A DNA stretch of 64,000 nt from Alphaproteobacteria bacterium (GCA_965203415.1 CBDBCS010000006.1:1378394-1442393); one strand, 5' to 3'; counted from the first letter of the stretch, positions 9,636 through 43,650 are shown. Translations and numbers: made by a program. Notes: generated by a model not told the origin, from the sequence alone.

Positions 9636-10048
9636 CTCGGGTGTTCCGGGGGCTCCCCGGGTATCCCTCCTGGTATTCCCCCGGGTATCCCTAGGTGTGT
9701 TTTAGAGCGTTTCACGGCAGAGCCCCTCTCGGTTGACATTCTGGTTCGTTCGGGCTAGAGAAAGACCTGGAGCAAAGGCGTGTTCTGTCGGCTCTTCCGT
9801 GGTCGGCCGCTGTCGGTGCCCCCTCCCGGTCTTTTCTCAGGTTGCCCGGGTCATCCCCGGGAGACCCGGGCAATTCGGCCCATTCTAGCAGACTTTTCAG
9901 AGCGTTGCTACAAGACGCTCTTGGGGCGGGCTCGGAGAAAAGGCCGCCAAAAGATCAGGACGGGGTCGGCACGCCGGGGCGAAGAAGGGGCGAGGAAACG
10001 CTTTTTTTGGGAAAAAGCAAAATTTGTGTGAGAGAAGGATTTTTTTGA

Positions 10049-11734
10049 ATGAAATCAGACATTGAAATAGCGACTCAGGCTCGCCTGCGGCCCGTAGCGG
10101 AAATCGGAGACCGCCTCCAGATCCCCCCCGAGGCCCTGTATCCGATTGGGCGCGATAAAGCGAAACTGGACCTCGCCTGGGCCGGGTCTGTGTCTGGGTC
10201 GCTCCCAGAGCGGCCTCAAGGGAAATTGATTCTAGTCACGGCGACCTCGCCCACGCCGGCCGGGGAGGGCAAAACCACCGCGAGCATCGGTTTGGGCGAC
10301 GCTCTGGCTCGTTTAGGCAAACGCACGGCTATTTGCTTGCGCGAGCCCTCTCTGGGCCCGTGTTTCGGGGTCAAAGGCGGTGCGGCCGGCGGCGGTTTTT
10401 CGCAGATTGTGCCGATGGAAGATATCAATCTCCATTTCACAGGAGACTTCCACGCCATCGGGTCTGCCCACAATCTGTTGGCGGCCATGCTGGATAATCA
10501 CATCTACTGGGGCAACGCCTTAGACATAGACCTACGGCGCGTCAGCTGGCGGCGCGTTCTGGACATGAATGACCGCGCGCTTCGCGACATCGTCTGTGGG
10601 CTGGGAGGCCCCAGCAATGGGTTTCCTCGCCAGTCTGGGTTTGACATCACGGTGGCCTCGGAGGTCATGGCGATCTTCTGCCTCGCCAAGGATTTATCGG
10701 ACCTGACCCAGCGTTTAGGCTCCATCATTGTCGGGTGGACACGAGCGCATAAGCCCGTTTATGCCCGCGATTTGAAGGCGCCCGGAGCCATGGCGGTGCT
10801 TCTTAAAAACGCGCTTTGTCCGAATCTCGTTCAAACGCTGGAGCACACGCCGGCTTTCGTGCACGGCGGGCCTTTCGCCAATATCGCGCACGGCTGCAAT
10901 TCGGTGCTGGCAACCCAGAGCGGCCTCGGCCTCGCCGATTACGTCGTCACCGAAGCCGGCTTCGGCGCAGACCTAGGAGCCGAAAAATTCCTCAACATCA
11001 AATGCCGCAAGACGGGTTTGCAGCCCTCGGCGGCGGTGGTTGTCACGACGCTGCGGGCTCTCAAGACCCACGGCGGGGTGCCCTCGAAGGCTTTGGGGGT
11101 GCCCGATGCGGCCGCCCTCGAGCGCGGCCTGGCGAATCTGGAACGCCATATCCGGAACCTCCGGCGGTTCGGCCTCCCTGTTCTGGTCGCGGTGAATCAA
11201 TTCACCACGGACACCCCCCAAGAGCACCGCTTGGTCCAGGATTTCTGCAAGGCTCTGGACACTCGAGCGCATCTCTGCACGCACTGGGCGGAGGGCGGAA
11301 AGGGAGCTCTAGACCTCGCCAAAGACGTTGTGGCGGTGGCGGACCAGCCGCAGGCTGAATTCCAGCTTCTCTATCCGGACAAGGCCGACCTGGCGACCAA
11401 AATAGAGACCGTCGCTCGGACCATTTATGGAGCCGCCGCCATCGAGATGAGTCAGAAAACCCGCGACCAGCTCCGTCTTTTTGAGGATCTGGGCTATGGG
11501 TCTGTGCCTGTCTGTATGGCGAAAACGCAATATAGTTTCTCGACGGACCCGCGCAAACTCGGGGCCCCAGAGGGCCATATCGTGCCCATACGCGAGGTAC
11601 GCCTCGCCAGCGGGGCCGGGTTCGTGGTGGCCATCTGTGGCGAGATTATGACCATGCCAGGCCTGCCTCGCACGCCGGCCGCCGAACATATTCGACTCAA
11701 TCCAGAGAGCGGCGCGACAGAGGGTTTGTTTTAG
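10049..11734 (+). CDS. fhs: Formate--tetrahydrofolate ligase
   Basis: 561-aa ORF. The N-terminus 'MKSDIEIA...' and the P-loop region 'TPAGEGKTT' are recognised, and the whole length resembles FTHFS. Confidence 0.95.
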
Positions 11735-34360: not shown

Positions 34361-35515
34361 TTACTTCCGGACGCGGGCTGCGCCGACAAACGTCTCAAAG
34401 CCGGTTTCGATCTCGATTAAGGCCAAGACGATCCTGTAGTTCGTTTGCTGGTTGCCACTGATGTTGGCGACCGTGCCGTAGAGAACATATTGAGCCCCCA
34501 CCAAACGCCCGATCTCGACCGCCGTCTCAGAGTCCGCCAGACCGCTTTGAGCCAGTTGGACTTCTTTCATGATGGTCTCTAGGTTCCGGTTGACGACTCT
34601 AAAGAAGCGCAACTCGCTTAGGCGAATCCGGACCGACTCATTGATGAGTTGCGTGTCAATGTTTTCCCCCAAGCGACTCTCGATGGGAACGATCACCAAC
34701 GTCGGTCTGGTCGTCTCGCCGAGCTCCTCTTTCATAGCCGCCACCATCTTGTCGACGATAGTCTCGAAAGCCTGGACGTCGAAGCTCGCGGCGACCGTTT
34801 CCTGCCGAGGGGCCGAAGTCGCGGAGGCTGCCGGCTGAGGGGCCGGCGTTGCGGGGGCGGCCGCGGCCGTATTGTTTTCGCGAAGACAAGCTTTGAATGC
34901 GTTGACTACTCGACGTTCTTCGTCGCTGCCACTGGAGGTCTCCCAGTATTTGCGGAAGTCCGAGAGACACGCCCCCGTTTGGCGGATTTGCTCGGCCCGA
35001 TTTTCGCCGCCCAGAACACAAGCGGAGAATAATCCGAAGTATCGGGTTCGTTCGTCCGAGCCCCCGGGGGCATTCAAGTGTTTGCGGTAGTCCGAGAGAC
35101 ACGCCCCCGTTTGGCGGATTTCCTCGGCCCGATTGACGCCGCCCCAAACACAAGCGCGCCATAATCCGAAGTATCGGATTTTTTCGTCCGAGTCCGAGGG
35201 GGCCTTCCAGCCTCTGCGGTAGTCCGAGAGACACGCCCCCGTTTGGCGGATTTCCTCGGCCCGATTGACGCCGCCCACAACACAAGCGTAGAATAATCCG
35301 TAGTATCGGGTTTCTTCGTCCGAGCCCGAGGGGGCCGCATCCCCTCTGTCGTCGTACGACTTACACGCATTCTGAGCATGCGCCCTCTCGACGCTCAGCG
35401 TGACGCCGACGAGAGCCGTCGCGAGAACGGCTGCCCAAAAACGGACACGCCGGCTCGCCAAAAGAGCACCGCCGCGTGCCACCAATTCAGACAATCCGGT
35501 GTTTGTTTTTCCCAT
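34361..35515 (-). CDS. LpoB/FlgO-fold secreted protein, array member 1 (about 3.5 two-Cys repeats)
   Basis: 384 aa. Leader 'MGKTNTGLSELVARGGALLASRRVRFWAAVLATALVGVTLSVERAHA'. The repeats have the form '...RYFGL..AC..GG.NRAEEIRQTGACLSDYR...'. The C-terminal domain is 'PTLVIVPIESRLGENIDTQLINESVRIRL...GAQYVLYGTVA...LALIEIETG'. Confidence 0.8.
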   Translation of the reverse strand: MGKTNTGLSELVARGGALLASRRVRFWAAVLATALVGVTLSVERAHAQNACKSYDDRGDAAPSGSDEETRYYGLFYACVVGGVNRAEEIRQTGACLSDYRRGWKAPSDSDEKIRYFGLWRACVWGGVNRAEEIRQTGACLSDYRKHLNAPGGSDERTRYFGLFSACVLGGENRAEQIRQTGACLSDFRKYWETSSGSDEERRVVNAFKACLRENNTAAAAPATPAPQPAASATSAPRQETVAASFDVQAFETIVDKMVAAMKEELGETTRPTLVIVPIESRLGENIDTQLINESVRIRLSELRFFRVVNRNLETIMKEVQLAQSGLADSETAVEIGRLVGAQYVLYGTVANISGNQQTNYRIVLALIEIETGFETFVGAARVRK

Positions 35516-35873: not shown

Positions 35874-36467
35874 TTAGGGGAAGGGGAGATAAGTTTGAGG
35901 AGATACAAAAATACTAGGACGGAGGTAAGCAGTGCTTACTATTTTGAAGCTGAATATGTAGCCAACTTGCTCGTGATCTTCGATGAAATCGTCCATATAG
36001 GCCTCGAATGCATATTTTGCACCATGTTCTTTCTCCTGGAGGGTGAACAGGCCCTTTGAATACAGGTTAGCTCGAATCAAACCAATGATAGGGTCCTTCT
36101 CCTCACCCATAAATGCTTCTCCATCTGTCCTGTCTTTGAGTTCAATCCATAAAGGTGCTTTTTTGTCACCGAGCTTCTCTGTGAATTGTTCGTTGTCAGC
36201 CATTTCTTTAATCAAATTTTTGATGATAATCTCGATCAGCTGGTCGTCGACTCTCCTCACCTTAATTTCGGGCTGCCTATCAATGGAGTCTCCATCAGTC
36301 ATACTTATGATGCGAGTACATATTCCGACGATTTCCCTGCCGACGAAATCACAACCGCTCAGAGTTGTCGCAAGGAGCAAGGCTCCCAAAAAACAGGCAG
36401 AAGGCCTCGCAAAAAGAGCGAACACAGGTGCAAAAAATTCAGACAATTCAACATATTTTTTTCTCAC
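35874..36467 (-). CDS. Divergent short array member 2 (lipoprotein, low GC)
   Basis: 197 aa with a GTG start. The family leader plus lipobox 'MRKKYVELSEFFAPVFALFARPSACFLGALLLATTLSGC' is present. The remainder only loosely follows the family C-terminal pattern. GC is visibly lower than in the flanks. Confidence 0.6.
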   Translation of the reverse strand: MRKKYVELSEFFAPVFALFARPSACFLGALLLATTLSGCDFVGREIVGICTRIISMTDGDSIDRQPEIKVRRVDDQLIEIIIKNLIKEMADNEQFTEKLGDKKAPLWIELKDRTDGEAFMGEEKDPIIGLIRANLYSKGLFTLQEKEHGAKYAFEAYMDDFIEDHEQVGYIFSFKIVSTAYLRPSIFVSPQTYLPFP

Positions 36468-36593: not shown

Positions 36594-37634
36594 TCACCGG
36601 CCGTTAAGCGGCTCCAGTCCGTGCTGGAAAAGGCTCCCTCCCCCGAGAATCTGCCTGGCTTCACCGGTACCGGTCCAAACATCAAGACCGGACCGAGTGT
36701 TGGTTACGGTCAAGGTGAGTGTGTGGACAATATCATCACCTTCGTCACTTTTTTTAGCGGCTATGGATCCGTTGAGCACATATTGAACTCCGGCCAATTG
36801 CCCGAGCCGGGTGACATTATGGGAGTCTGCCAGAAGATCAACGCTTGGTATCGGGTATTGTTCTTGAAGCAGGGTCTTCTCCGCCAGAGGATTCCAGTTC
36901 ACAAGGGTGAACTGGTTCGCTTCATACAGGCGAACTTGAAGCGTATCATTGACAATTGGCGTGTCAATGTTTGCATTCGACCGATTTGTGATGGGAGTGA
37001 CCAGTAAAGTCGGTTCGGGTCCGGTAGCGCGGAGTTCCTCTCGTAGAAAGAGGTCGGCGCCCATTTGTGCGATCACGTCGTCGGCAAGATTCCCGAAAGC
37101 CTGGATATCGAGGCTTGTTGCTACGGAAAGCTCACTTTCCTTAGGCTCAAGTGCCTCACGTACCTTACGTAGCTGTTCCGCTTTTTCCTCTCCCTCATTT
37201 TCCGCAATTGTTTCAATACCACCTAAATTCACCCCACTCCAAAACCCCGAGCGACAACGCGACTTTTGGTCTCTTTCTAATTCGCTTCTGCCGCAGGTCT
37301 CTAGGTAGAAGTCAAGAACCTCAAGTTCCGCTTTTTGCTCACTCTCACGTACCTTACGTACCCGTTTCACGTCTCCTTCAGTTTTTTCCGCAAGTTCTTC
37401 AATTTCCTCCCATTCCTGAGTGGAACAAACAACACGTTCGTCGCAGCGGACGATTTTTTCTTCCAATTCATCAGAGCGGGCGATTATTTCCTGGGAGTAG
37501 CCGTAGCCCGGGAAGAGAAAGCTGCTCAGAGTCATCGCAACGAGCACGACTCCCAGAAAACAGGCAGAAGGCCTCGCAAAAAGAGCGAGAAGAGGTGCAA
37601 AAAATTCAGACAATTCAACGTATGTGTTTCTCAT
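36594..37634 (-). CDS. LpoB/FlgO-fold array member 3 (class II central cassette)
   Basis: 346 aa from 'MRNTYVELSEFFAPLLALFARPSACFLGVVLVAMTLSS'. The central cassette is acidic and Cys-containing. The C-terminal domain is 'PTLLVTPITNRSNANIDTPIVNDTLQVRL...GVQYVLNGSIA'. Confidence 0.75.
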   Translation of the reverse strand: MRNTYVELSEFFAPLLALFARPSACFLGVVLVAMTLSSFLFPGYGYSQEIIARSDELEEKIVRCDERVVCSTQEWEEIEELAEKTEGDVKRVRKVRESEQKAELEVLDFYLETCGRSELERDQKSRCRSGFWSGVNLGGIETIAENEGEEKAEQLRKVREALEPKESELSVATSLDIQAFGNLADDVIAQMGADLFLREELRATGPEPTLLVTPITNRSNANIDTPIVNDTLQVRLYEANQFTLVNWNPLAEKTLLQEQYPIPSVDLLADSHNVTRLGQLAGVQYVLNGSIAAKKSDEGDDIVHTLTLTVTNTRSGLDVWTGTGEARQILGGGSLFQHGLEPLNGR

Positions 37635-37759
37635 TTGGTCCTCCGTTTGGCTAAAGGTTAATCTTATCACAAAACGGCCCTCCCGGGCAACCCGGGTCAC
37701 CTTACCAAAGAGAAAATTCAACTACAAGTTAAATTTTCTGTTTTTTTCTATTTATTTTT

Positions 37760-38664
37760 CTATTTTTGAGTTATTGCCGCAGGAGGCCCCGCCCGCGAGG
37801 CCGTCTTATGGACTTCGGCCTCATCTACCCAAGCGTCAAGTCCCGTTTCAATCTCGGTCAAGACCAGGGTGAGCGTGTAGACAATTTGCACTTCGCTCTC
37901 TTGGCGCGTGCGTATCGCCGCGATAGACCCGTGCAGGACATATTGAGCCCCAAGCATTTGTCCGACCTCGGCGGCCGTATCAGAGTCCGCCAGACCGCTT
38001 TGTTCCAATTGTTGCTCTTGCAGCAGAGTCTCTAGTTGGCCTCGACTCACGGGGGCAAAAAGGCGAGCTTTACTCAGGCGGACTCGGAGCGCATTGTGGA
38101 TGAGGTGCACGTCCACGTTCGCATCCGACCCATGCCTCAGGTGGTGTCGTTGCTCTCAGGGGTTGCCTCACGTTCAAGGGCCTCACGTATCGCACGTAGC
38201 TCACGGAGCTGTTCCGCGGTTCCCTCCTTTTCCGCAATGGCTTCAAGATAATCAAAACCCCAAACGCCCCCCGAGCGACAATGCCACGTTCGGTTGCCAT
38301 CCGCACAGAGATCTAAATAGACGCCAAGAATCGCACGGTCCATCGTTTCTCTCTTGCTGCGTCCATAGTCGCGTATCCTACGTACCCGCTCCACATCTTG
38401 CCCTGTTCTTTCCGCATAGTCTTCAATCTTCTCCCATTGGGCAGCGGAACAAATAGACACCCAGGAGCCGCCGTTGCGGCCGTTGGGGTTGAGCAATAAA
38501 GCCTCGCATCTGTTCAAGGCGTTTTCCAATTCACGTTGCTCCACGGAGACACTACAACCGCTCAGAGTCGCCGCAACGAGGACGACTCCGAGAAGATAGG
38601 CGGATACTCTAACGGGTCGGCCGGCGTATCGACCCGTGTATCGGCCAGAGTCTGTTTTTCTCAT
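37760..38664 (-). pseudogene. Array member 4, disrupted by an internal deletion and frameshift
   Basis: The N-terminal ORF (38137-38664; leader with lipobox 'ATLSGC' and a class II cassette) stops at TGA. The C-terminal domain resumes in another frame at '..GSDANVDVHLIHNALRVRL...GAQYVLHGSIA'. About 50 codons corresponding to the 'FG..AF...PTLL..PI.N' segment are missing. Confidence 0.7.
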
Positions 38665-38706
38665 TTGAGCCTCCTTCGAGTCACCATACCGCCACACCCA
38701 CGCCCG

Positions 38707-40299
38707 CTAGGACGTTTTAATGACTTCGGCTGCCTCGAGCCACAAATCAGCACCGGTTTCAATGTTGGTTACGATCAAGGTGAGTGTGTAGACAATCTGC
38801 AGGCCGCCACTCTCGAGCGTGCGTATATCGTCGGCGATGGAGCCGTGGAGCATATATTGAGCTCCGAGCGTTCGCCCGACCTGAGCGGCACTCTCGGCGT
38901 CCACCAGGTCGCCCAGTGTTTGTTCTTGAAGCAGGGTCTCTAGGTGGTCTCGCCTCACGAGTTCAAAGAGGCGCTCTCGATTCAGGCGAACTCGAACCAA
39001 ATTATGGATGAGTTGCGTGTCAATGTTTGCTCCCGACCGGTTCTCGATGGAGGCGATCAGTAAAGTCGGTTTGGTACCGCCGAGGTCCTCTTTGAGACCG
39101 AGGTCGGTGCCCATGTTTTTAATCACGTCGTCGGCAAGTTTTTGGAAATCTCGGACACCGAAGCTCGCTGCGAGAGCTGCCTCAAGGGCCTCACGTTCCT
39201 CCTGTGTCAGACTTGCCTCACGTGTCTCAGGTGCCTCACGTGTCTCACGTGTCAGACTTGCCTCACGTGTCAGACTTGCCTCACGTGGTGTCTCACGTTC
39301 CTCATAACGCCCCTCCTCTTCGCGGACTTTGTCAAGCAGATTTCCGCCGCGCACCAAAAACAGATGTCCGAACGCCTCCTCAATCTGCTTACAAGCGTAC
39401 TCTAAGCTGTAGTATAAGTCTTCTGTGTGCGAGCGGTCAGCATCCCGGGCTTCGCTCCGGTACAAGATACACCCACTACTCAAACCACGTTCCAGGTGTT
39501 TTCTGACTCTTGTGACCGTACGTTCGCCGCCTCTATCACAAGCGTAATAGAATATGTCGTATAGGATTATTGCGTACGAGTCCGCGGGGGACGCCTCGTA
39601 TTTGTAATAGTACGAGTCACACGGATCATAATTTTCTCGAAGACAAGCTTTCCATAAGTTGAATTGTCGTTCTTTTGCGTCGCCCTTCCGGGGGGCAGAC
39701 TCCCGTTTGCGGTAGTCCGAGAGACACGCGCCACTTTCGCGGATTTCCTCGGCCAGATTTTCGCCGCCTTCAACACAAGCGGAGAATAATGCTGCGTATA
39801 GCATTTGTGCGTCCGAGCCCGAGGGGGCATTCCGGGCAGCATTCCAGTATTTGCGGTAGTACGAGATACACGCGCCACTTTGGCGGATTTCCTCGGCCCG
39901 ATTGACGCCGAACCAAGAACAAGCGTAGAATAATGCTGAGTATAGGATTGTTTCGTCCGAGCGTGCATTCCAGGATTTGCGGAAGTACGAGATACACGCG
40001 CCACTTTGGCGGATTTCCTCGGCCCGATTGACGCCGAACCAAGAACAAGCGTGATATAATGCCCAGTATAGGTGGTATTCGTCCGAGTCCGAGGGGGACG
40101 CACGGTATCTGTCCCAGTACGAGTCACACGCATCCTCACGAGCACTCCCAACGCTCGGCGTGACGCCAACGAGAGCGAGCACGAAAACCGCCGCTAAAAA
40201 ACGGACATGCCGACCCGCAAAAAGAGCGAACACAGGGGCCAACAATTCAGACAAGCCTGTGTATCGGCTAGCGTATCGGTCAGAGTCTGTTTTTCTCAT
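38707..40299 (-). CDS. LpoB/FlgO-fold array member 5 (about 5 degenerate two-Cys repeats plus a REASLT tandem)
   Basis: 530 aa from 'MRKTDSDRYASRYTGLSELLAPVFALFAGRHVRFLAAVFVLALVG'. The repeats have the form '..LY.AL(F/Y).AC.(W/E)(F/G)G(V/E)N(R/L)AEEIR(Q/E)SGAC(I/L)S(Y/D)(F/Y)RK'. The C-terminal domain is 'PTLLIASIENRSGANIDTQLIHNLVRVRL...GAQYMLHGSIA'. Confidence 0.8.
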   Translation of the reverse strand: MRKTDSDRYASRYTGLSELLAPVFALFAGRHVRFLAAVFVLALVGVTPSVGSAREDACDSYWDRYRASPSDSDEYHLYWALYHACSWFGVNRAEEIRQSGACISYFRKSWNARSDETILYSALFYACSWFGVNRAEEIRQSGACISYYRKYWNAARNAPSGSDAQMLYAALFSACVEGGENLAEEIRESGACLSDYRKRESAPRKGDAKERQFNLWKACLRENYDPCDSYYYKYEASPADSYAIILYDIFYYACDRGGERTVTRVRKHLERGLSSGCILYRSEARDADRSHTEDLYYSLEYACKQIEEAFGHLFLVRGGNLLDKVREEEGRYEERETPREASLTREASLTRETREAPETREASLTQEEREALEAALAASFGVRDFQKLADDVIKNMGTDLGLKEDLGGTKPTLLIASIENRSGANIDTQLIHNLVRVRLNRERLFELVRRDHLETLLQEQTLGDLVDAESAAQVGRTLGAQYMLHGSIADDIRTLESGGLQIVYTLTLIVTNIETGADLWLEAAEVIKTS

Positions 40300-40528: not shown

Positions 40529-41191
40529 CTAAAAGAGCCCCCGCGAGGACGTTTTACTGACCTCGGCTTCATCGACCCAATAGTCGATGCCGGTCTCGAG
40601 TTCGGTCAAGGTCAAGACGACTTTGTAGAAAATCTGTTGGTCGCCACTCTCGCGCGTCCGGATATTCGCGATGGACCCGTGCAAGAGATATTGAGCCCCA
40701 ACCAACCGCCCGATCTGGCTGGCACTATCGGGGTCCGCGAGACCGCTTTCGCCCAATTGCTGCTCTTCGAGCAGGGTCTCCAGGTGGTTCCGGTTCACAA
40801 AGGTGAAGAGGCGAGCTCGATTCAGGCGGACTCGAATCGAGTCATTGATGAGCTGCGTGTCAATGTGCTCATCCGACCGATTCACCACAGGCGAGATCAG
40901 TAAAGTCGGCCTGAGATCGCCCAGATCCTCTTTGAGACCGCGGTTGGTGACCATGGCCTCGACCATATCGTCGACGATTTTCCGGAAATCTCGGACGCCG
41001 AAGCTCGTGGTGAGCGCTTCCTCGCCCGCCTGGTTTTCGCGGACGCCGCCACAGCTGCCTAGAGTCGTCGCTAGGAGGACGGCTCCTAAGAAACAGGCCG
41101 AGCGCCTCGTGAAACGACTCGCGAAACGACCCGCGAAAAGAGCGAGCCCAGTGGCGAAAAATTCAGACAATTCAAGGTATTTTTTTCTCAT
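40529..41191 (-). CDS. LpoB/FlgO-fold lipoprotein, array member 6 (minimal form, no central repeats)
   Basis: 220 aa from 'MRKKYLELSEFFATGLALFAG...LLATTLGSC', with a lipobox. This is directly followed by the family C-terminal domain 'FGVRDFRKIVDDMVEAM...PTLLISPVVNRSDEHIDTQLINDSIRVRL...GAQYLLHGSIA'. Confidence 0.8.
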   Translation of the reverse strand: MRKKYLELSEFFATGLALFAGRFASRFTRRSACFLGAVLLATTLGSCGGVRENQAGEEALTTSFGVRDFRKIVDDMVEAMVTNRGLKEDLGDLRPTLLISPVVNRSDEHIDTQLINDSIRVRLNRARLFTFVNRNHLETLLEEQQLGESGLADPDSASQIGRLVGAQYLLHGSIANIRTRESGDQQIFYKVVLTLTELETGIDYWVDEAEVSKTSSRGLF

Positions 41192-41342
41192 TTCCTTCTC
41201 CATTTGACTAAAGGGTTAGTTTATCCCAAAAAACGGCCTTCTCGGGAGCCCCGGGACACCCGGGACGACCCGCGACCAAGCCCGGGAGTTTCGCCGCCTC
41301 GAGGCGGCCCCGGAAGAGGTCTTCGGCCATTTCTCTGCCTCT

Positions 41343-41525: not shown

Positions 41526-42491
41526 TTACTTACGGACTTGGGCTGCTTTTTCAAAAAAGTTAGAACCTTGAGTTTCAAGCTCGATTAAGGTCAAAAAGAC
41601 TCTGCAGTTCGTTCGATCACCGGCGACGGTGCCGTGGAGCACATATTGGACTCCGACTATTCGCCCGATCTCGGTCGCCGTATCGGAGTCCACGACCCCG
41701 CTTTGGGGCTGTTGTATTTTTTGAAGGATTTTCTTTACATTCCGGCTTGAAACTTTAAAAAAGCGCAAATCGCTCACGAGAATCCGAATCGACTCATTGA
41801 TGAGTTGCGTGTCAATGTCTTCCCCCACGCGACTCTCTATGGGAACGATCACTAAAGCCGGTTCGGCATCCTCGCCGAGCTTTTGTTTCAAGTTCGCCGC
41901 CATGTTGATGATGACGGTCTCTAAAGCGAAGGTCGGTGCGACCGTTTCCTGCTCCCGGGCCGGATTTTTTTCGCGAAGACAATTTTCCAATAAGTTGAGT
42001 TGTCGACGTTCTTCGTCCGAGTTCTCGGAGGCGTCCCAGAATTTGCGGTGGTATGAGAGACACGCCTCAGTTTCTTGGATTTCCTCGGCCAGGTTTTCGC
42101 CGCCCTCAAGACAAGCCCACCATAATGCGTTGTATCGGATTTCTTTGTCCGAGCCCGAGGGGGCCTCCCAGAATTTGCGGTGGTATGAGAGACACGCCCC
42201 ACTTTTTTTGTCGATTTCCTTGAGCCGCTTTTCGCCGCGGCCGAGCCCAGCACAAAGCTTCCGGGATTTGTATTCTCGGCCTTCTTCGTCCGAGTCAGTG
42301 GATTTGTACGAGAAACAGGCCTCAAGAGGACTAGGAATAGGAACAGGAACAAGAACAGGAATACAAGAGCTCAGCGTGACGCCAACGAGAGCCGTCGCCA
42401 GAACGGCCGCCAAAAAACGGACACGCCGACTCGCCAAAAGAGCGAGCCCGAGTGCCAAAAGTGTAGACAATCCGATGGTTGTTGTTCTCAT
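41526..42491 (-). CDS. LpoB/FlgO-fold lipoprotein, array member 7 (about 2.5 two-Cys repeats)
   Basis: 321 aa. The leader 'MRTTTIGLSTLLALGLALLASRRVRFLAAVLATALVGVTLSSC' carries a lipobox. The repeats include 'GACLSYHRKFWEAPSGSDKEIRYNALWWACLEGGENLAEEIQETEACLSYHRKFW'. The C-terminal domain is 'PALVIVPIESRVGEDIDTQLINESIRI...GVQYVLHGTVA'. Confidence 0.8.
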   Translation of the reverse strand: MRTTTIGLSTLLALGLALLASRRVRFLAAVLATALVGVTLSSCIPVLVPVPIPSPLEACFSYKSTDSDEEGREYKSRKLCAGLGRGEKRLKEIDKKSGACLSYHRKFWEAPSGSDKEIRYNALWWACLEGGENLAEEIQETEACLSYHRKFWDASENSDEERRQLNLLENCLREKNPAREQETVAPTFALETVIINMAANLKQKLGEDAEPALVIVPIESRVGEDIDTQLINESIRILVSDLRFFKVSSRNVKKILQKIQQPQSGVVDSDTATEIGRIVGVQYVLHGTVAGDRTNCRVFLTLIELETQGSNFFEKAAQVRK

Positions 42492-42543: not shown

Positions 42544-43650
42544 CTACTTACGGACTCGGGCTGCGTCGACAAACACCTCAACACCGGTTTCAGTCTCGAT
42601 TAAGGCCAAGACGACTCTGTAGTGCGTTTGCTGATTGTCATTTATGTTGGCGACGGTGCCGTAGAGTACATATTGAGCGCCGATCAAGCGTCCGATCTCG
42701 ACCGCCGTGTCAGAGTCCGCGAGATCGCTTTGGGCCAGTTGTAGTTCTTTCAGGATGGTCTCCAGATTCCGGCTCACAATTGTAAAAAAGGGCACCTTGC
42801 TCAGGCGATTCCGAATCGACTCATTGATGAGTTGCGTGTCAATGTCTTCACCCACACGCTTATCGATGGGAACGATCAGTAAAGTCGGTCTGGCATTCTG
42901 GCCGAGCTCCTCTTTCAAGGCCTCCACCATGTCGTCGACGATGGTCTCGAAAGCCTGGACGCCGAAGCTCGCGGCGACCGTTTCCTGCCTACGGGCCGGA
43001 CTTATTTCGCGAACACAAGCTTTCCATAAGTTGAGTGGTCGAACTACCTCGTCATTGCCCCGGAAGGCCTTCCAGTATTTGCGGAAGTCCGAGAGACACG
43101 CCCCAGTTTCGCGGATTTCCTCGGCCAGGTTTTCGCCGCCCAGAACACAAGCGGTGAATAATCCGTAGGGTAGGATTTCTTCGTCCCCGGGGGCCTTCCA
43201 CCCTTTGCGGAAGTCCGAGAGACACGCCCCAGTTTCGTGGATTTCCTCGGCCCGATTTTCGCCGCCCAGAACACAAGCGGTGAATAATCCGAAGTATCGG
43301 ATTTCTTCGTCCGAGTCCGAGGGGGCCTTCCAGTATTTGCGGAAGTCCGAGAGACACGCCCTAGTTTCGTGGATTTCCTCGGCCCGATTGACGCCGCCCC
43401 AAGCACAAGCGTTCCATAATGCGGCGTATAGGATTCTTTCGTCCGAGCCCGAGGGGGCCGCCTGGTGTTTTTCACCATACAAGTCACACACATCATTAGC
43501 ACGAGCACTACCAACGCTCAGCGCGCCGACGACGAGAGCGGTTGCCAGAACAGCCGCCCAAAAACGGACACGCCGACTCGCCAAGAGTGCGCCTCCGAGC
43601 GCGACGCCGCGTGCCAAAAATTCAGACAATCCGATGGTTATGTTTCTCAT
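42544..43650 (-). CDS. LpoB/FlgO-fold secreted protein, array member 8 (about 3.5 two-Cys repeats)
   Basis: 368 aa. The leader is 'MRNITIGLSEFLARGVALGGALLASRRVRFWAAVLATALVVGALSVGSARA'. It has three clear repeats and the C-terminal domain 'PTLLIVPIDKRVGEDIDTQLINESIRNRL...GAQYVLYGTVA...LALIETETG'. Confidence 0.8.
   Translation of the reverse strand: MRNITIGLSEFLARGVALGGALLASRRVRFWAAVLATALVVGALSVGSARANDVCDLYGEKHQAAPSGSDERILYAALWNACAWGGVNRAEEIHETRACLSDFRKYWKAPSDSDEEIRYFGLFTACVLGGENRAEEIHETGACLSDFRKGWKAPGDEEILPYGLFTACVLGGENLAEEIRETGACLSDFRKYWKAFRGNDEVVRPLNLWKACVREISPARRQETVAASFGVQAFETIVDDMVEALKEELGQNARPTLLIVPIDKRVGEDIDTQLINESIRNRLSKVPFFTIVSRNLETILKELQLAQSDLADSDTAVEIGRLIGAQYVLYGTVANINDNQQTHYRVVLALIETETGVEVFVDAARVRK

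Follow-up and report, generated by a model that had tools for sequence, protein, structure and literature searches.

We analysed a 64,000-nucleotide stretch of DNA, hereafter the window, from the genome of an uncultured alphaproteobacterium (Alphaproteobacteria bacterium, GCA_965203415.1, CBDBCS010000006.1:1378394-1442393). Between 34.3 and 43.7 kb, it carries eight co-oriented paralogous genes on the minus strand, m1 to m8, which all open with a conserved leader, MRKT..GLSE...RRVRFWAAVLATALVGVTLS. This leader was not found in the source genome outside the cluster. A PF13036 LpoB domain forms the C terminus of m1, m3, m5, m6, m7, and m8, and of the C-terminal fragment of a split m4; m2 (35874-36467) keeps the leader and has no PF13036 match. 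Four of the eight paralogs, m1, m5, m7, and m8, also encode an array of three to six tandem units of 44 residues (126-132 bp), each with two cysteines, which is the subject of this work (table 1). The leader ends in an SPI-type (signal peptidase I) site, ...SARA or AHA, without lipobox in m1, m5, and m8, and in the lipobox LSSC in m7, supporting the export of the repeat proteins. Lipid attachment through the first cysteine of the repeats was considered and rejected, as its contexts, QNAC, NDVC, and EDAC, are not lipoboxes.

Tandem Repeats Finder recovered the unit in m1 (period 132, 3.0 copies, 34945-35335, 87% matches), m8 (period 126/132, 3.0 copies, 43058-43459, 86% matches), and m5 (period 126, 2.0 copies, 39839-40087, 92% matches). 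A preliminary description of this DNA had placed the repeat in m1, m7, and m8 and, in degenerate form, in m5. Our coordinates bear this out for all four genes, m5 being the more diverged (39385-40137). It had also reported a recurring DNA string, which is real: a 39-nt string, encoding AEEIRQTGACLSD on the coding (minus) strand, occurs with at most three mismatches at seven sites, 34959, 35091, 35223, 39716, 43088, 43214, and 43346, against none expected from 100 shuffles. The positions first given for it were about 2-7 nt too low.

The cysteines are regularly distributed. They occupy positions 51, 78, 95, 122, 139, 166, 183, and 210 of m1, where the spacing alternates between 27 and 17 residues, and positions 55, 82, 99, 126, 143, 168, 185, and 212 of m8, where one unit is 2 aa shorter. 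Their number per array is even, with 8 in m1, 8 in m8, 12 in m5, and 6 in m7 (excluding the lipobox cysteine of m7 and one in its LpoB domain), and all arrays open and close with a cysteine pair spanning 21-31 residues. As both features favor a C-x26-C pairing, the structural unit is most simply described as C-x26-C plus a 16-residue linker. The two cysteines per unit of the preliminary description are thus retained, and its spacing, C-x16-C-x25-C, is close to the measured C-x26-C-x16-C; its phase was wrong, as the structural unit starts with the C-x26-C segment and ends with the 16-residue linker helix.

The array of m8 (residues 48-218) was modeled by AlphaFold2 from an input of only six sequences, with a mean predicted local distance difference test (pLDDT) of 90.6 and a predicted template modeling score of 0.86. 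The model is all-alpha, each unit comprising three helices. The first, helix A, has nine residues, starts right after Cys1, and is followed by a loop (APSDS, five residues, or APSGSD); helix B has 16 residues, Cys2 lying three residues ahead of its end; and helix C, of ten residues (NRAEEIRQT), follows a GG turn. In the model of the full-length protein, the array keeps a pLDDT of 80-94, and a low-confidence linker (residues 218-229) lies between it and the LpoB domain. By residue counting, Cys1 faces Cys2 in the antiparallel A-B hairpin, and the whole of helix C separates Cys2 from the next Cys1. Most likely, therefore, a disulfide between Cys1 and Cys2 of the same unit (C-x26-C) would staple hairpin A-B after export to the oxidizing periplasm. 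The source genome encodes a DsbA-like thioredoxin (PF13462) and DsbB (PF02600), which makes disulfide formation after export plausible; a profile search of the same genome gave no PF01323 match. The disulfide-stabilized helical hairpins proposed earlier were correct as to helicity; the unit is made of three helices and not of a two-helix hairpin.

Table 1. Features of the repeat-carrying genes and of the repeat-less paralog m6 (positions in the window)
Feature	Coordinates	Strand	Details
m8 leader and signal peptide	43498..43650	-	aa 1-51, ends ...LSVGSARA; family alignment; low pLDDT in full-length model
m8 two-Cys helical repeat array	43006..43497	-	aa 52-215; four C-x24/26-C hairpins with 16-residue linker helices between them
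m8 flexible linker between array and LpoB domain	42955..43005	-	aa 216-232; pLDDT below 50 at residues 218-229 (full-length model)
m8 C-terminal LpoB-fold domain	42562..42954	-	aa 233-363; PF13036 E 1.3e-18
m1 two-Cys array	34877..35374	-	aa 48-213, four hairpins; gene 34361-35515; LpoB domain 34382-34753
m7 two-Cys array	41970..42326	-	aa 56-174, three hairpins; gene 41526-42491; lipobox LSSC at aa 40-43
m5 type-A two-Cys units	39634..40137	-	four hairpins; aa 55-222 from likely start 40299; gene 38707-40299
m5 divergent type-B hairpins	39385..39633	-	two C-x25/26-C units of the form PCDSYYYKYEASPADSY...YAC; Cys spacing, weak self-match E 0.009
m6 repeat-less lipoprotein	40529..41203	-	lipobox LGSC, then LpoB domain directly

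The preliminary description could not assign the repeat to a recognized class, and our searches agree. A Pfam hmmscan of the four repeat regions at E<=10 returned nothing credible, with no PF08238 (Sel1-like), tetratricopeptide repeat (TPR), or armadillo (ARM) match and a chance TPR_TmcB match of 14 bits, the speed filters of HMMER being able to hide very weak matches. A sequence profile search of the PDB at E<=10 gave only a chance match to ribosomal protein uS4 (E 0.27) and no chain of the Helicobacter cysteine-rich proteins (Hcp), nor any Sel1-like repeat (SLR), TPR, or ARM chain. Foldseek comparison of the array model with the PDB gave no match below E 0.1 (best E 0.11, TM<=0.31), and no SLR, TPR, or ARM protein was among the 50 matches listed. 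A word-indexed search of 5.8 billion proteins found five: two encoded in the window and three from a single ENA metagenome sample. An exhaustive hidden Markov model (HMM) search of 1.84 billion representatives added one paralog of the same lineage and two further proteins, P0008 and P0007. The former, a Kelch protein, was discarded as spurious because it is a beta-propeller. The latter, a STAND-NTPase-like protein of 961 aa, has about eight tandem, helical-looking repeats of 45 residues with one cysteine each (ACVAELKRLSDAPTATSDI.L.YA.GL.NAS...); it matches the two-Cys hairpin weakly (E 1e-5), through the common pattern AC..K...AP..SD...Y..GL..A, and its repeats may be remote relatives or analogues, or convergent. 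Pattern scans of the GTDB species genomes and JGI metagenomes found no copy of the repeat, nor did HMM searches of 400 genomes of the class. Credible matches are confined to the source genome and one ENA metagenome sample, and we describe here a repeat family that was previously undescribed and apparently belongs to one uncultured lineage. The source genome is the sole member of its family among the genomes compared, and ClpA, encoded in the window, shows about 60% identity to proteins from various Alphaproteobacteria.

The units had been described as nearly identical at the DNA level and more conserved than the flanking parts of the genes. The second claim does not hold: m8 and m1 share 82% of their nucleotides over the repeats and 84% over the LpoB domain. 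The first is true of one half of the unit and of synonymous sites, and not of the unit overall. The repeats have a synonymous divergence (dS; this and all following rates by Nei-Gojobori counting) of 0.10, about 3.4 times less than the LpoB domain (0.35); nonsynonymous divergence (dN), in contrast, is 0.235 in the repeats and 0.132 in the LpoB domain, and dN/dS 2.3 and 0.38, respectively. Comparisons with m7 follow this pattern, repeat dN/dS between paralogs ranging from 2.3 to 2.6. Among 14 internal units, 22 scaffold codons show about 0.07 (0.069) differences per site at each of the three codon positions, and the other 22 codons 0.43, 0.50, and 0.29 at positions 1, 2, and 3, respectively. 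The high-entropy unit positions of helix B are 34/35, 38, 41/42, and 45/46, and their i, i+3/4, i+7 spacing places them on one helical face. Variable positions are also found in helix A (21, 24-26), and W, Y, F, and R are enriched at the variable positions. This hypervariable half-unit, with a dN/dS above 1 between paralogs and between strains, had been missed and is a more notable feature of the array than its conservation.

Comparison with a second strain supports this observation. In the ENA sample, contig L006 is syntenic with the window from 32.5 to 40.4 kb. Its flanks are 97-100% identical to those of the window, with more than 2 kb at 100%, whereas identity falls to 81-90% in the array of m1 and to 60-89% in that of m5. 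The two m1 orthologs, of equal length, differ at 62 codons, 48 of them nonsynonymously. All 48 amino acid changes lie in residues 14-234; about 45 of them, within or beside the array, affect the positions at which the units also differ from one another. No amino acid is replaced in the 150 codons of the LpoB domain (1.0 nonsynonymous difference after Nei-Gojobori path averaging). Accordingly, dN is 0.185 and dS 0.076 in the array (dN/dS 2.4), and 0.003 and 0.048 in the LpoB domain. Synonymous changes are in deficit (p=0.012), and 25 codons carry two or more changes where 9.6 are expected (p<5e-5). When sites were classed from other genes only, three changes fell in 57 scaffold codons and 45 in 75 variable codons, the latter with a dN/dS of 3.0 (p=0.013). 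The m5 ortholog pair follows the same trend, with a dN of 0.34 and a dN/dS of 1.56 in the type-A units and 0.059 and 0.40 in the LpoB domain.

Changes between orthologs are commonest at codon position 2 and rarest at position 3. We examined the possibility that a shifted frame is under purifying selection and rejected it: in seven genes, leader and LpoB domain are continuous only in frame 0, which also keeps the cysteine pattern and folds at pLDDT 90. The shifted frames of the repeat region are open, with a dN/dS of only 0.5-0.7, and do not link the leader with the LpoB domain. More generally, regions 43005-43515, 34650-35380, 39567-40170, and 41812-42352 lack stops in the three sense frames, and partly in antisense frames too, giving spurious open reading frames (ORFs) of 83-209 aa. 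These stop-free extra frames are probably a by-product of the repeat and can mislead gene callers, as for protein P0004.

A second contig of the same sample, L007, carries further members of the family, and its tail runs into an m6-like gene. The m1-like copy at L007:5836-6567 (S_x1) has the leader and four repeat units without LpoB domain, and lies beside a glutamine-synthetase-like gene, the place of m8 in the window. Its 5' part is closer to the m1 of the window than is the second sample's own m1, which suggests exchange between loci. In the paralog at L007:9849-10693 (S_ps), the two-Cys repeat is spread over three frames (ORFs 9849-10172, 10001-10693, and 10087-10509), as in a frameshifted pseudogene or following assembly errors; its DNA has exact tracts of 35-49 nt in common with variant segments of the second sample's m1. 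Between these two copies, L007:6707-8702 encodes three small exported Cys-containing proteins (about 125-155 aa when mature) with the family leader and a conserved upstream stretch, and with neither LpoB domain nor two-Cys repeat. As they are absent from the window genome, the content of the array differs between strains. The type-B hairpin of m5, whose cysteine spacing resembles that of type A, recurs in P0006, a 350-aa paralog encoded on L007. Downstream of the Cys modules of m5, a 9-nt tandem repeat of about 12 copies (39178-39287) encodes (R/T)EASLT / RETREAP-type peptides before the LpoB domain; m5 of the second strain has a different, longer insert at this position.

Concerted evolution or cassette exchange between paralogs, as first suggested, is supported by three lines of evidence: the low dS of the repeats, mosaic exact tracts, and runs of concordant polymorphic sites. 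The variant clusters of the second strain's m1 (S_m1) lie inside exact matches of 35-82 nt to S_x1, S_ps, and m8 of the window (W_m8). A Sawyer-type run test on concordant polymorphic sites was significant for S_m1/S_x1 (p=0.0002), for W_m1/S_x1 (p=0.008), and for W_m1/W_m8 (p=0.012), W_m1 being m1 of the window; the last pair lies within a single assembly. We rejected a diversity-generating retroelement (DGR) as the source of variation. The substitution spectrum of the m1 orthologs has no adenine bias, a repeat search of the source genome gave no template-like copy outside the cluster, and reverse transcriptase is matched only by degenerate sequences on another contig, which together make such an element unlikely. 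These matches (PF00078, contig C4:53584-70877 of assembly G000) are several fragments with stop codons that look like decayed retroelements unrelated to the array.

The LpoB domain points to the origin of these genes. PF13036 is matched with E-values of 2.5e-17 in m1, 6.7e-09 in m7, and 1.2e-18 in m5, in addition to m8 (table 1). The full-length m8 model is matched by Foldseek to LpoB (4q6l / 4q6z, E 1.6e-7, target-normalized TM 0.73-0.75) and more weakly to GNA1162, FlgT, PelC, and CsgG. All four repeat carriers nevertheless score below the TIGR02722 LpoB equivalog cut-off of 110.55 bits (m8 72.2, m1 69.2, m7 37.5, m5 72.6), and m6 is the only member to pass it (113.6). The one m6-like gene of the only other genome of the same order (G024) encodes a 198-aa lipoprotein with the m6 architecture and without repeats. 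Among forty relatives, each genome has zero or one PF13036 gene, three at most in one genome, against seven matches in the source genome, all in the array. As the relatives carry at most a few such genes, usually none or one, and the same-order genome a single repeat-less one, the array is a lineage-specific expansion. New modules have been inserted between the leader and the LpoB domain, and m6, which has only a short linker where the repeat carriers have three to six units, represents the ancestral type. The place of the two-Cys repeat is taken in m3 (36594-37721) and in the N-terminal fragment of the split m4 (38137-38697) by another helical-looking module with cysteines (…C..(5)C…C..(12)C…). 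PF14814, the UB2H docking domain of PBP1B, has one match below the cut-off in the source genome (20.1 vs 27 bits, E 0.0012), which is 86% complete.

Taken together, we consider it probable that the repeats form a lineage-specific, disulfide-stapled alpha-solenoid in which short-tract gene conversion and positive selection diversify the exposed face, as a putative binding or display array on an LpoB-like module. Three to six predicted three-helix units lie inserted between the signal leader and the LpoB-fold domain, where the ancestral, single-copy m6-type lipoprotein has a short linker. Statistically, and on the basis of two strains, short-tract gene conversion homogenizes the buried scaffold residues and the DNA encoding them among units and paralogs; diversifying selection maintains differences and fast turnover at about 22 positions of each unit, located on one face of helix B and in the C-terminal half of helix A. 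The resulting surface would be displayed in the envelope, held by the LpoB/PelC/CsgG-like module, for arms-race or partner-specific contacts; candidate partners are a host, phage, or competitor factor, or a peptidoglycan-related ligand. Elsewhere, the fold common to LpoB, PelC, CsgG, and FlgT docks to envelope machines or forms outer-membrane-associated rings.

Several points weigh against this proposal. Each gene is represented by only two alleles, both from metagenome assemblies, in which mosaic tracts might be simulated by chimeric joining of nearly identical units. Significance in the dN/dS tests is modest (p about 0.01), the rates are Nei-Gojobori counts, and constraint on synonymous sites, for instance to keep recombination homology, could inflate the ratio. 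As the flanks of L007 are only 81-89% identical to the window, its supposed donor copies may belong to a strain other than that of L006. The disulfide pairing is a prediction from cysteine spacing and modeled helices. Finally, m1, m5, and m8 have an SPI-type site and no lipobox, so that they may end up in the periplasm, at the outer membrane, or outside the cell, and strong diversifying selection is harder to explain in a purely periplasmic protein.

Other explanations account for part of these observations. Escherichia coli LpoB spans the periplasm by a disordered N-terminal stretch of 145 Å (PMC6220978), and the arrays sit exactly at the position of this linker, with a number of units that varies between paralogs (3, 4, 6). 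They could hence be rigid spacers, or rulers, that replace the disordered linker and set the reach of the LpoB domain, the surface variation being neutral drift reshuffled by conversion. We regard this as unlikely: a neutral surface on a constrained scaffold predicts an overall dN/dS below 1, whereas we measured 2.3-2.4, and 3.0 at variable sites. Moreover, the enrichment at variable positions is in W, Y, F, and R and not in small polar residues, and the UB2H partner domain is matched only below the cut-off. A bolder extension of the display hypothesis, to which we likewise give a small chance, is that diversification is programmed and combinatorial. The invariant 39-nt anchors would guide recombination, and short variable segments would be shuffled among intact, truncated, and frameshifted copies to generate a repertoire of binding surfaces on the stapled solenoid. 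Such a system would parallel, in bacteria, repeat receptors assembled from cassettes, such as the variable lymphocyte receptors of lampreys; if the lineage were a symbiont, it could serve host recognition or evasion.

It is quite improbable that the two-Cys repeat, instead of forming a new family, belongs in strongly diverged form to a known helical class (Sel1-like as in Hcp, TPR, or armadillo). The ARM repeat, with three helices in about 42 residues, and the weak match to the one-Cys repeats of P0007 would fit such an origin. So would the resemblance to the Hcp proteins, an expanded secreted family with one disulfide per alpha/alpha repeat and a dN/dS above 1 concentrated on solvent-exposed residues (PMC1941758). 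However, the Pfam, PDB profile, and Foldseek searches reported above matched none of these classes, and the two-Cys unit has three helices with its cysteine pair across 26 residues. In Hcp, the cysteine spacing is 7.

There is a slighter chance still that the genes encode inhibitors or immunity proteins of the periplasm, which might act on lysozymes or toxins that target peptidoglycan and come from competitors or the host, each paralog being directed at one effector variant. Tandem exported paralogs with hypervariable, binding-type surfaces, the periplasmic or envelope setting, and an LpoB-fold domain tied to peptidoglycan biology would suit this function. On the other hand, no toxin, type VI secretion system, or contact-dependent inhibition gene was recognized among the neighbors examined, and no known immunity family showed homology (padloc and phrogs were not among the libraries searched). 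This explanation concerns the nature of the ligand and is compatible with, not exclusive of, the structure and evolution proposed here. Lastly, that the strain mosaic reflects collapsed or chimeric repeat units in the assemblies, or a targeted mutator such as a DGR, is barely credible: the common identical 39-nt anchors could mislead assemblers and reverse-transcriptase fragments do exist in the source genome, but both assemblies have intact, equal-length frames with perfect cysteine spacing and flanks identical over more than 2 kb, the paralog-level signal is seen within the single window assembly, and the evidence against a retroelement is given above.

The preferred reading, a stapled solenoid with a diversified face, adds to the known repeats an undescribed and confidently predicted alpha-solenoid family, apparently from one uncultured lineage. 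It offers a clear example of scaffold homogenization combined with surface hypervariation in a bacterial envelope protein, and a route by which the gene of an LpoB/PelC/CsgG-fold lipoprotein may become a variable multigene family, through insertion of a repeat module at the linker site. If the variable face does bind host, phage, or competitor molecules, the arrays would constitute a natural library of disulfide-stabilized binding scaffolds and would mark, at the level of strains, an arms race in this uncultured alphaproteobacterium.

Among known systems, the Hcp/Sel1-like family of Helicobacter (HcpA-E, PF08238, PDB 1KLX, 1OUV) would be the closest functional analogue, although neither sequence nor fold searches place the two-Cys repeat within it. 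Both are Sec-exported tandem alpha-helical repeats in a lineage-expanded family, with a disulfide per repeat that is observed in Hcp and predicted here. They differ in that the SLR unit has two helices and about 36 residues, whereas the two-Cys unit has three helices and 44 residues; in addition, the two-Cys array is fused to an LpoB-fold domain and is encoded by tandem paralogs with gene-conversion tracts. The designed helical repeats DHR18 (5CWI) and RPB_PLP1_R6 (7UDN), the top Foldseek matches of the array, are likewise regular all-alpha solenoids with short loops. However, these matches are nonsignificant (E 0.11-1.7, TM 0.15-0.26), the designs have no cysteine staples, and they have no evolutionary relation to the array.

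With LpoB itself (E. coli and Salmonella; PF13036, TIGR02722; PDB 4Q6Z, 4Q6L, 2MII), the repeat proteins share the C-terminal fold and an N-terminal extension between the globular domain and the membrane-proximal end. A single gene encodes LpoB, an outer-membrane lipoprotein whose linker is disordered, whereas the window has seven tandem PF13036 matches, a confidently predicted helical array holds the place of the linker, and only one of the four repeat carriers has a lipobox. The carriers also fall below the TIGR02722 cut-off, as does the UB2H partner below its own. As to the mode of variation, the V regions of TprK in Treponema pallidum, pilE/pilS in Neisseria, and Msp2 in Anaplasma are variable envelope proteins driven by gene conversion. 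Here too, conserved DNA anchors flank short variable segments, exact tracts are common to paralog or pseudogene copies, and the second sample has one frameshifted and one truncated copy. Unlike in these systems, all four repeat genes of the window are intact with their own leaders, the assemblies compared give no sign of a single expression site with silent cassettes or of switching inside a population, and the variable units lie in a helical repeat and not in beta-barrel loops or a pilin.

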